Shown piece after piece: positions 17,932-20,947 of a stretch of DNA of 24,335 bases. Positions within the stretch are counted from its first letter, which is position 1, and each line of letters begins with the position of its first letter. The notes below the pieces were generated by a model, which saw only the letters and a list, made by a program, of their open reading frames with translations, was not told the DNA's origin and searched no databases. This stretch comes from an uncultured Gammaproteobacteria bacterium (GTDB lineage Bacteria; Patescibacteriota; Microgenomatia; CAZUUL01): the NCBI GenBank assembly GCA_964623155.1, contig CAZUUL010000002.1, forward strand, positions 1 to 24,335. The letters are read 5' to 3'. The translations under genes and the position numbers were made by a program.

Positions 17932-20076
17932 ATGAAAGAAGACTGCAATCTGTTTTTCTACAGCTTCAAGAAAAAAAGCTCTCTGTAGCCATAGGGGTTA
18001 TTCTCCTCTTAGTATTGCTTTCAATCCTTCTTCTGTCTAGAAGTCAGCAAAAAGGCGAAACCAAACCTCAACCTAGCAAACTCTCGCAACAATCTGCACC
18101 TTCAGCCAAACCTAGTCCCCTTCCTCCTCCCAAAGTCTTTTTCGAAACGTATGAAAACAAATCGTCCTTACCAACGGTGCCAGAGACGGTGAATGGTTAT
18201 ACTCTTAAAACCAACTATACTCTGGCTGAAGTGATTGCCTTTGGGAAAAAGTTGGGATTGACTGAAGTAAAAACTCCTGATGATAAGTTTGTCATTCTCT
18301 ACAACCTGACTGATATGAATAACAGAGGCATACTTACGTTTAATAGAGAAACTGGTGGGATCTCATTTCAGTCCTACGGAGTCCATAAGGCTAAGGACTC
18401 CTGGGATGGTGGCCCCGCTCAGCGGGGACTCCTCCCAGGTGTCCGCAAGCAGGTAGACGTGGAAGGATCAACACAGCGTTTCCTCTCTAACCTTGGCATC
18501 CTGGATCCCACCATTGTCTGTCCCATTACTTACCAAAAGAAAGGTTTAGAACAGATCACCTTTGTTGAGTGTCACCGAGATTGGAAGAAGGTGGAGCTTC
18601 CAATCCTTAATGCCATTGGTGTGTTAAATATTCCTGAGAACAAACCGCTTGCCTCTCTTGCTGTTGGTCAGACTGATGAAAATACTCCCGCTGATCCTTC
18701 TATTATTTCTGTTTCCATCGCCCCACCATCCCAGGAGCCCATTCGGTCACCTGGGAGGAGGGACTTAGGCCAGGATGGTAAAGCCAGACCCAATGATTTT
18801 AATACCATTACTGTTGGAGTTACTCCCGATGGCAGAATCCTCTCCATTGAATCAAACCTAAGAGCTATCAAAGAAACCAGGTCAAGTATCCCAAGACAAT
18901 CTTGTTCCCATGTACCTTATTCGTGGAACAGCAGAACTAACTACCGGCTACAGAGTCAGATTTACTGAAGTAGTACCAGCTCTCAGAAGTGGTCTCTCAT
19001 TCCTTCCCCCTGTTGGTGGTACTGTAGCTGGGGCCACGTCTGACGTGGCTGGGGAATCCACCACAAACCTTGCTCAAGCTCCAGGTCTTCACCTTGGCAC
19101 CTTTACACCTCCCCCAACAGAACCATTGCCAACCCAACCGCCAACACCGACAAATCCTCCTTTATTATCCCCCACATTCCCATCTCAACAATTACCACCA
19201 TCTACTAGTGGCTGTAGACCTTCTGTGTCTCAATTGGAACCGCTGTACGAATTGGATGGAGTTCAGTTTGGCCGGTCGGTACTAACAGGAGGACTTGACC
19301 CTAACCTTTATGGATATTGGTACTATGTTCGTAATTCGAGCATCACTACCGAACGACAGGTTTTAGACATTGTGCGTCGTATTAGTCGACAATTGGAACT
19401 TGACCCTGGCCAAAGTGAAACTGTAGGAGCTATCGGTAAACGTCAGAGATCATATGAAGATATCTTAGCAGAGTTTAGAGCTAACAATGATTGTCCAGTA
19501 AGAATCAGCGGACCTTCTCCATCCCTCTACCTCTATCCCAAACAACTCACCACCGTCACTATTTCTCTTGGTTCTCCACTAACCTACACTGACCCAACGG
19601 TTAACAACAACTCCTGGTCCATCCTTTCCCAACCAGATGGCACACTTTCTGAATCAGGAATCAAGAATTATGAATCATGGGAAAAACTGTATTATGAGTA
19701 TGATAAACGTAAAATAACATTTACTGAACCCAGTGAAGGTTTTGTAGTGAAAAGAGGTGAATGGGAGGCTGAAGTGAGAAATATCGCATCACATCTTAAG
19801 CTAACCAGCAAAGAAACAGAGGATTTGGTGACTGATGTCAGAAACACTCTCATTGATGTCAAAGATTCTCCTTATCTAAAAATCTCTTTTGTCGACCGGA
19901 AAGAGATTGATGAGAAGTTGCCAATGACTATTTCTCCAAAACCAGATATCTTCCATCGAGTCCACCTCTATCTTACTCCACTTTCTCAACTGATTAACAT
20001 TTTACAACCAACCATTGTTCCCCTTGAACGAAATGGATTTACTGCACTTGAGCTGGGAGTAGCAGCTAAAGAATGA
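17932..20076 (+). pseudogene. surface protein paralogue 3, with two frame disruptions
   Basis: The ATG at 17932 is one base out of frame compared with the paralogue at 23510. About 63 codons are missing with a frameshift near 18876. The track ORFs 17865-18968 and 18910-20076 are the two pieces. Confidence 0.75.
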
Positions 20077-20089
20077 TACAATAACACGT

Positions 20090-20425
20090 ATGAGTGCAAA
20101 GATTCAAAAGGATTATCAAGAAGAGGTTAAACAGCTGGTTGAGCGTGTGATAACGGTCTATCAGCCAGAAAAAATCATTGCCTTTGGCACAACTGCCAGT
20201 GGTTATGTCGATGAGCAGAGTGATATCGATCTTTTAGTAGTGAAAAATACTGAGAAGCCATTCTGGGAAAGAGTAAAAGATGTGCTGCCATTGTATGACG
20301 GTTTCCGTTCATTTGATGTCTCTGTGCTGACTCCTTACGAGCTTGGCCAAGCACGAGAGAAAGGCTGGTATTTTATCACCGAGGAAATCCTTAACAAAGG
20401 CAAAACGCTGTATGAAAGACACTAA
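20090..20425 (+). CDS. minimal nucleotidyltransferase (MNT) antitoxin
   Basis: KIIAFGTTASG...SDIDLLVV...FDVSVLTP...KGKTLYE; TG-A-TACAAT 7 nt upstream. Confidence 0.85.
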   Translation: MSAKIQKDYQEEVKQLVERVITVYQPEKIIAFGTTASGYVDEQSDIDLLVVKNTEKPFWERVKDVLPLYDGFRSFDVSVLTPYELGQAREKGWYFITEEILNKGKTLYERH

Positions 20426-20780
20426 ACCCAACCGCTATAACTTGTTGGGTCTTCACTTTTATACCCCGGCCTGTTTTCTGGCACAACAAGCCGCAGAAAA
20501 AGCGCTGAAAGCATATTTGCTCGCCCACGGTGTTGCCTTAGAAACGATCAAAATCCACACCCTTATTCGTCTCATCAAGGAATGCCTCAGATTTTCTCCT
20601 GAGTTTAGTGAGCTAAAATCAAAATGCCAGCTACTTGATCGGTACTATATTTCCACACGCTACCCTCCTGATGCCGGTCCCCTAAGTGAATTCACTGACA
20701 ACGAGGCGGAAGAGGCAATAACGTATGCTCAAGAGGTTATTGAGTTTATTGATGAGAACGTTAGTCAGCAAAGAGATTGA
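20412..20780 (+). CDS. HEPN-domain protein (MNT-HEPN toxin partner)
   Basis: ACFLAQQAAEKALKA, IHTL, YYISTRYP. ATG at 20412 overlaps the MNT end; the first helix looks short and the stop lies inside the downstream repeat. Confidence 0.8.
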   Translation: MKDTKPNRYNLLGLHFYTPACFLAQQAAEKALKAYLLAHGVALETIKIHTLIRLIKECLRFSPEFSELKSKCQLLDRYYISTRYPPDAGPLSEFTDNEAEEAITYAQEVIEFIDENVSQQRD

Positions 20781-20947
20781 TGAGAAGTTGCCGATGACTA
20801 TTTCTCCCAAACCGGATATCTTCCACAGAGTCCACCTGTTTCTTACTCCACTTTCTCAACCGATTAACATTTTACAACCAACCATTGTTCCACTGGATAG
20901 AAACGGATTTACTGCTGTTGAACTGGGAGCGATGAGTAGGTAGCCAC

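Follow-up and report, generated by a model that had tools for sequence, protein, structure and literature searches.

Probable tail-replacing acquisition of an MNT-HEPN pair by a surface-protein gene in contig CAZUUL010000002.1

In the 24,335-nt stretch of contig CAZUUL010000002.1 analysed here (hereafter the window), a predicted toxin–antitoxin (TA) pair, composed of a minimal nucleotidyltransferase (MNT) and a HEPN protein, is located between two copies of the 3' end of a surface-protein gene, gene B. The upstream copy (T1) completes the reading frame of gene B and the downstream copy (T2) is an orphan, and the two differ mainly by synonymous substitutions. We consider it probable, from the comparison of these sequences with related loci, that T1, a short spacer and the MNT-HEPN pair were acquired together and pushed aside T2, the tail resident in the gene. 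The locus has the following features:

17865..20076, + strand: gene B, coding for a membrane-anchored secreted protein of a candidate phyla radiation (CPR)-type family, broken (open reading frames, ORFs, 17865-18968 and 18910-20076)
19900..20076, + strand: T1, functional tail of gene B and cassette-linked copy; last 58 codons and stop, in the conserved ~190-residue C-terminal domain
20077..20089, + strand: spacer of 13 nt from the gene B stop to the MNT start codon
20090..20425, + strand: MNT, 111 residues, predicted antitoxin (Pfam Polbeta 1.8e-7, NTP_transf_2 2.4e-6)
20412..20780, + strand: HEPN, 122 residues, predicted toxin (PF05168, 86.4 bits, E 2e-24); ATG at 20412, last 11 nt including the stop within T2
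20769..20770, no strand: sole novel junction, between the cassette end and the T2 start
20770..20943, + strand: T2, orphan and putatively displaced tail; 57 codons and a TAG stop, with the frame of the gene still open

Two diverged gene tails and their junctions

The direct repeat (19900-20059 versus 20770-20929) has 160 nt, 90% identity and a spacing of 870 nt, and no other direct repeat of comparable size is present in the region around 19900-20929. Read in the frame of ORF 18910-20076 it spans 53 codons. Of the 16 differences 12 are synonymous, and the four replacements between T1 and T2 are all conservative (Y>F, L>P, E>D and L>V). The proportions of synonymous (pS) and non-synonymous (pN) differences are 0.31 and 0.033, respectively (pN/pS 0.11), an excess of synonymous changes that is not compatible with neutrality (P = 2.5e-5), and the two tips share 86% identity in protein. 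The repeat starts exactly at KEIDEKLP, the most conserved motif of the surface-protein family, and its first 23 nt are identical in T1 and T2; 5' of 19900 and 20770 the copies have no similarity at all. On the 3' side of the 160 nt, T1 adds five codons (VAAKE*) and T2 adds four (AMSR*), which are unrelated endings with separate stops, the one of T2 (ELGAMSR*) being close to the ELGAMTKE* of homologue P0002. T2 is annotated by gene callers as an ORF of 63 or 72 residues.

The sole novel junction was identified between 20769 and 20770, where similarity to gene B starts and similarity to the HEPN gene of a distant relative, on Logan contig L005, stops. The HEPN frame crosses it (GTT AGT CAG C/AA AGA GAT TGA, the slash marking the junction) and takes its final three codons and its stop (20778-20780) from T2, in another frame. 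No tRNA or Rfam element was found at this position. All details of the original prediction concerning the repeat were confirmed, namely its existence, the 90% identity, the 870-nt spacing, the 12 synonymous changes among 16 and the location of the HEPN stop inside T2. Its claim that both copies evolved as coding sequence was also supported, since a pN/pS of 0.11 is too synonymous for a duplication followed by neutral decay of the orphan. As for its proposal that they did so in different alleles, the two copies may equally be paralogues.

The longest exact run shared by T1 and T2 has 30 nt, hence the copies have no 31-mer in common, and both junctions are present in per-run contigs, from which we conclude that the structure is no assembly chimera. 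In run X1 a single contig of 2417 nt covers 18807-21223 with zero differences, in run X2 a contig covers 19865-20943, run X3 contains both junctions on two contigs and run X4 contains the HEPN-T2 junction, the latter being thus present in contigs of four runs. These Logan contigs are identical to the window and no alternative joints were seen in the four runs, which belong to one groundwater study, so to one population, and were inspected as contigs only, at a coverage of ~5x, such that minor haplotypes are possible. The source is a low-coverage metagenome-assembled genome (MAG) and one base near the window end differs from the NCBI record, two points that would favour a strain-chimeric artefact; given the absence of common 31-mers and the contigs that span the junctions (both in X1 and X2, with X3 and X4 also joining HEPN to T2) without differences, we regard this explanation, which the original prediction had raised, as negligible.

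The host gene family, the MNT-HEPN pair and their surroundings

The closest homologue of the window HEPN (P0035, 60% identical) is encoded on L005, and the MNT of L005 is 69% identical to that of the window. The order in L005 is family-gene 3' end, 13-nt spacer, MNT and HEPN, its DNA is collinear with the window from the tail to the HEPN end, and the spacers have equal length (TACAATAACACGT in the window and TAAAATAATAAAT in L005). This collinearity indicates that T1, spacer and MNT-HEPN constitute an old linkage, in which T1 would be the long-term partner of the cassette. Exact look-ups of the L005 MNT retrieved no longer contig.

MNT scores above the cut-offs of both Pfam models (Polbeta, 31.7 bits versus 26.9; NTP_transf_2, 28.3 versus 21), and its motif FGTTASGYVDEQSDIDL, read from the sequence, agrees with G[ST]x9-13DxD. 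The MNT and HEPN genes are on the same strand and overlap by 14 nt. The DNA alignment with L005 revealed a 45-nt in-frame deletion in HEPN (junction between 20443 and 20444), which corresponds to 15 residues of helix 1 (WLAKSKDDLRYAEGN in L005); the helical bundle is incomplete, helix 1 being gone, and the C-terminus is complete when compared with homologues and carries 3-4 additional residues from the repeat. The helix-1-deleted HEPN toxin is probably inactive, and MNT looks intact. A HEPN start at TTG 20343, which would restore helix 1, was considered and rejected, as these positions belong to the conserved 3' end of MNT and the DNA alignment with L005 shows a clean gap of 45 nt after ATG 20412.

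The Rx4-6H motif is absent at helix 3 of HEPN, where the family consensus is YYIPTRYP, with no histidine within 4-6 residues. The HEPN family has a conserved histidine upstream, in KIHxL, and a conserved upstream histidine was discussed as a possible alternative HEPN site (Anantharaman et al., PMC3710099). Against the MntA equivalog model NF047752, MNT reaches 21.6 bits, below the cut-off of 60. Because of this score and of the lack of Rx4-6H at helix 3, we assign the pair as a predicted MNT plus PF05168-type HEPN module, which is not a demonstrable member of the type VII HepT/MntA family. A TA promoter inside the tail was also rejected, since no sigma-70-like site was identified in T1, and nothing convincing in the dnaE and pyrG loci described below (L024 and L039); given the lack of a promoter-like site in T1, transcription of the pair probably continues from gene B. 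On the minus strand, at window positions 2269-2887, we also noticed a second MNT gene (2492-2887), followed by an 84-residue ORF and with no flanking repeat. The start of this ORF resembles HEPN helix 1 (VKEWLDKADEDF) and continues into a hydrophobic tail, and the two genes may be a second, more decayed MNT-HEPN pair.

The surface-protein family is characterised by a membrane anchor at the N-terminus, linkers rich in Pro and Thr, and a C-terminal domain of ~190 residues that is conserved and also present in Firmicutes and other bacteria; the surface protein had zero matches in Pfam, NCBIfam and PDB. Three further members are encoded in the window:

4831-7044: member A, intact
7044-8537: member A', with a stop/start overlap with A at 7044
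23510-24304: member C, cut off after codon 264

Compared with its paralogue C, gene B has lost 1 nt after the ATG (between 17938 and 17939), and compared with four homologues (A, P0154, P0155 and L004) it has lost ~55-60 codons, with a change of frame, at ~18880-18895; both lesions match per-run contigs. Gene B, the putative recipient, can now be described as a predicted pseudogene or split gene. Paralogues B and C are 82-85% identical, with a bias towards synonymous differences. The closest homologue of gene B (L004, positions 87-2568), on a Logan contig of another study, is also split over several frames, and members of this family may often be pseudogenised. Neither the cassette nor an orphan tail is present in five homologues (L004 and L009-L012), whose identities of 39-63% do not make them demonstrable orthologues. 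A scan of GTDB with the surface-protein tail retrieved zero relatives, and a scan of JGI metagenomes retrieved one, L009, with the empty layout. As for member C, the NCBI record of this contig has one T that the window lacks at position 24298 (L001 10209-10215). In the NCBI version C stops after codon 264 and the rest of the contig is unrelated sequence, which may reflect an insertion or a break in the assembly.

The resident flank of T2 (20948..21499) is a module of small RNA and gene that is unrelated to the cassette:

20948-20975, + strand: sigma-70-like promoter, beginning 4 nt after the T2 stop
~20982-21045, + strand: conserved small RNA
21050-21499, - strand: convergent gene of 149 residues

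The promoter is the strongest sigma-70-like site of the region (TTGCCA, 16 nt, TGgTAGAAT; 10/12 matches, extended TG), and the ~50 nt at 20982-21032 are matched by short contigs from other organisms. The sole Rfam match of the window is a DUF3800-IX RNA (22574-22642, 63 bits), which faces the end of a DUF3800 gene (22654-23280). A second orphan tail was observed on the minus strand, where an SPFH gene with a frameshift has its final 20 codons (12599-12661) repeated 2.9 kb downstream, at 9736-9798, with 12 synonymous and 5 non-synonymous differences. These two copies lie around a block of accessory genes, and a similar short element is found after each.

Recurrence of the layout and possible origins

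We looked for the same arrangement in 39 GTDB loci with an MNT alignment, from many phyla and with MNTs 30-48% identical, by comparing the DNA that precedes MNT with the DNA that follows HEPN. Flanking direct repeats were present in 10 of the 36 testable MNT loci, versus 4/71 controls placed 2.2-3 kb away (Fisher P = 0.004). At least five of the MNT-HEPN loci have a window-like architecture (~6/38 contexts overall), and two further HEPN contexts (L052-L063) had no flanking repeats. The repeats of L013, L014 and L032, which are palindromic or resemble repetitive extragenic palindromes, and those of L041, which look like flanking paralogues, were rejected and not counted. The following loci were considered:

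L024: dnaE, whose last 155 nt recur 15 nt downstream of HEPN with 83% identity, pN/pS 0.15
L039: pyrG, whose last 158 nt recur downstream of HEPN with 89% identity, pN/pS 0.20
L015: molybdopterin oxidoreductase (formate dehydrogenase, FDH), ~75 nt, pN/pS 0.33
L036: murG-like gene, 135 nt, pN/pS 0.49
L037, Nitrospirota MAG: pyrC/carA boundary, 26 nt, 3792-3817 and 4712-4737
L025, Dehalococcoidia MAG: 3' part of an unannotated 418-residue gene, 137 nt, 3134-3270 and 4640-4776, 87% identical, pN/pS 0.24

Next to dnaE and pyrG, in other phyla, the layout is the same as in the window, with gene tail, MNT-HEPN pair and orphan tail. The orphan copies in these two loci have each one 1-nt indel and radical substitutions, and there is no identical core at the left edge of their repeats. 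In L037 the duplication keeps the pyrC stop as well as the ribosome-binding site and start codon of carA. L025, found as a control position, has the tail/cargo/orphan layout with a cargo of ~1.3 kb of small ORFs other than MNT-HEPN. Orphans begin at a distance of -11, 10, 11, 11 and 15 nt from the HEPN stop in five cases and of at least 85 nt in the others. Four cases have similar tail lengths, between 155 and 177 nt; tails in this range are seen at dnaE, pyrG, L025 and icd, and T2 has 174 nt. No conserved cassette ends or inverted repeats were seen by eye over seven cases.

The repeat with its codon pattern, both junctions, the conserved linkage of T1 with MNT and the occurrence of the layout elsewhere are direct observations, and the direction of events and the enzymology are our inferences. 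A surface-protein gene already bearing T2 would have acquired a unit of 870 nt (T1, 13-nt spacer, MNT and HEPN), donated by a closely related strain or by another paralogue of the same family. The incoming tail would have paired with the resident gene by homology, whose reading frame it would now complete, the far end of the unit would have been joined just upstream of the resident tail, between 20769 and 20770, and the resident tail would have been pushed downstream as an orphan with its own stop, followed by the original flank of the gene. Such a process would most likely have been recombinase-free and homology-anchored, a route favoured by the absence of any recombinase domain on the main ORFs of the window and by the presence of only MNT and HEPN between the repeats. 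It could have proceeded by a single crossover (insertion-duplication) of a circularised tail-MNT-HEPN molecule, in which precisely the homologous stretch is duplicated; a further candidate is that a linear piece was taken up and joined by homology-facilitated illegitimate recombination. Because T2 shows almost no neutral decay, the acquisition appears to be recent relative to the T1/T2 split, and the young orphan state of T2 together with the old T1-MNT linkage would fit a recent homology-guided move of an old unit of tail and cassette. The locus would have eroded since then, with the two frameshifts in gene B and the loss of HEPN helix 1. An orphan abutting the cassette end (-11 to +15 nt in the five cases) and the tail range of 155-177 nt are predicted by this acquisition model.

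The proposal of the original prediction, that an incoming new tail and TA pair displaced the old tail, is thus supported, though not proven, by the collinearity with L005, the recurrence at dnaE and pyrG and the signature shared with icd/icdC, and the synonymous-biased SPFH orphan tail of the window also speaks for it; its statement that no integrase is present agrees with the lack of recombinase or transposase domains on the main ORFs of the 24-kb window. Several observations weigh against the acquisition of the unit by tail replacement. In L005 the HEPN stop overlaps the ATG of a full-length tandem family member and there is no orphan tail, and the window locus has demonstrable deletions elsewhere, in gene B and HEPN. 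No microhomology was seen between 20769 and 20770 and a recombinase is also lacking, such that any mechanism is hypothetical. The cross-genome cases are a small sample (~6/38), all of them metagenome-assembled contigs unconfirmed by reads. Moreover, neither an empty-site allele, nor a donor, nor an excised form was found in the four runs, whose contigs at ~5x all have the same structure.

The layout of L005 is exactly the one expected if T2 were the remnant of a tandem paralogue, that is, if an ancestor with gene1, MNT, HEPN and gene2 had lost ~2 kb of gene2, from its start, overlapping the HEPN stop, to codon -57. Tandem family genes do exist, as the A/A' overlap at 7044 illustrates, a 90% identical tail pair is what may be expected of paralogues such as B and C, three other deletions are visible at the locus, and the gene-start codons ATG AAA GAA resemble the first T2 codons AAA GAG, a possible microhomology. 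Nevertheless, the left end of the deletion would have to hit the last HEPN codons in combination with a tail length of 155-177 nt, a joint chance that we roughly estimate at well under 1%, and the expected ATG is not kept at the junction, where AGC is found. Furthermore, the identical layout follows the essential genes dnaE and pyrG, to which this model is inapplicable: these are single-copy housekeeping genes, and therefore a decayed tandem paralogue cannot explain L024 and L039. We find a paralogue remnant, the main rival reading and akin to the decayed paralogue that the original prediction had named as its refutation, quite unlikely. An unlikely origin, too, is the same outcome achieved by a site-specific recombinase, the pair being then either the addiction-protected remnant of a larger e14-type element or a non-autonomous cassette moved in trans. 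The architecture and its numbers do match the integrase-driven e14/icd/icdC case, the identical first 23 nt on the most conserved motif of the family resemble an attachment (att) core, the repeat of L037, with only 26 nt, has an att-like size, and TA-only islets were proposed to derive from eroded mobile elements (PMC13617665). However, the 24-kb window has no recombinase, the erosion would have had to stop at no more than ~15 nt from both att sites, independently and in several genomes, the variety of targets with like cargo (dnaE, pyrG, FDH, murG-like gene and surface protein) is ill-suited to one site-specific enzyme, and L024 and L039 lack an identical core at the left repeat edge.

A target-site or tandem duplication, in which the tails were identical at first and the downstream copy has decayed since, would be expected to give a pN/pS of ~(1+omega)/2, roughly 0.5. 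This is the value of L036 (0.49), and the indels and radical substitutions of the L024 and L039 orphans indicate that some decay took place. In the window, by contrast, T2 is intact with a pN/pS of 0.11, the synonymous fraction is 0.75 versus an expected 0.35-0.37, and duplication and decay were rejected (P 0.001-0.002), as they were for L024 (P 0.001) and L039 (P 0.04); the last codons of T1 and T2 are, in addition, unrelated, as is typical of different family members. Values of pN/pS below this expectation imply that the tails had diverged as functional sequences before they came to lie at one locus, and we hold an origin by duplication to be very improbable. The same difference in synonymous fraction led us to reject a transposon target-site duplication with orphan decay, and no transposase is known to make target duplications of 100-180 nt. 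A diversity-generating retroelement, with variable and template repeats, was rejected as well: the mismatches are mixed-base in both copies, mostly at third codon positions and synonymous, and no reverse transcriptase domain was found.

Returning to the tail-replacing acquisition, we tentatively put forward the possibility, in which our confidence is low, that small TA cassettes and other small cargo spread without recombinases, together with the last ~100-180 nt of the preceding host gene. The coding tail would act as a homology arm for integration into this gene, or one of its paralogues, in another genome, and an intact gene would be regenerated, so that essential targets such as dnaE and pyrG would be possible and the resident tail would be left as a diagnostic orphan. 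The divergence of the tails and TA addiction would protect the insert against loss by recombination between the repeats. For chromosomal TA pairs that lack mobility genes this model, if true, would offer a concrete and testable route of spread by transformation and homologous recombination, for example in CPR bacteria, and would explain how cassettes come to be located directly after essential genes without harm. A synonymous-biased orphan 3' fragment right after small cargo would then be the signature of a recent acquisition and of its direction, and short "hypothetical" ORFs, such as 20725-20943, could be flagged in annotation as displaced gene ends.

Comparison with known systems

The PF05168-type module shares with the type VII HepT/MntA system the two-gene organisation of MNT and HEPN, the overlapping genes and the nucleotidyltransferase motif in MNT. 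It differs in its HEPN protein, a predicted toxin of PF05168 type, without Rx4-6H and internally deleted.

Chromosomal TA islets, composed of the TA pair only, with no mobility genes and in some cases with short flanking duplications, were described in a survey of Photorhabdus, in which the usual order of erosion is that the toxin decays before the antitoxin (PMC13617665). The loss of helix 1 in HEPN next to an intact MNT follows the same order. The flanks of the Photorhabdus islets are, in contrast, a 24-bp palindrome resembling a Tn3 res site, and their spread was ascribed to homologous recombination in flanking core genes. In the literature searched there is no description of a second copy of the coding 3' end of the upstream gene with synonymous divergence.

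Displacement of C-terminal ends is known from rhs, cdiA and type VI secretion system (T6SS) effector-immunity loci (Jackson et al., 2009, PMC2935791; Kirchberger et al., 2017, PMC5361080), and homology-facilitated illegitimate recombination, which is integrase-free, was proposed for tip displacement in T6SS and rhs (PMC5361080). In these loci, as in the window, a new 3' end with partner genes is inserted at a conserved motif and the old 3' end survives downstream as an orphan. Their tips, however, are unrelated toxin domains with cognate immunity genes, under selection on the tip, whereas the tips in the window, 86% identical in protein, are the end of one conserved non-toxin domain, and the cargo, a TA pair complete in itself, is functionally unrelated to the host gene.

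Nearly the same numbers are found for E. coli icd, where prophage e14 (as well as phage 21) is integrated and icdC is the displaced pseudogene (Hill et al., 1989, PMC210168; PMC13626634). There, the element brings its own copy of the last ~55 codons of its target, which lies upstream and makes the gene whole, and the resident one is left downstream as an orphan; the icd tail in e14 and icdC share 165 nt with 92.7% identity and 10 synonymous to 2 non-synonymous differences, compared with 160 nt, 90% and 12 to 4 here. The window contains, like e14/icd, a 5'-truncated downstream copy with its own stop and coding divergence, and differs in having no internal integrase or excisionase: e14 has 15.2 kb, encodes intE and xisE and its excision was observed, whereas the insert here has 0.87 kb and only MNT-HEPN, the 24 kb of sequence contain no recombinase, and neither excision nor an empty site was seen. 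The target is also different, being a member of a multi-copy surface-protein family and not a housekeeping gene. On this comparison, the tail-replacing architecture is the one known from e14/icd, which at this locus appears shrunk to a two-gene TA cargo with no recombinase inside.

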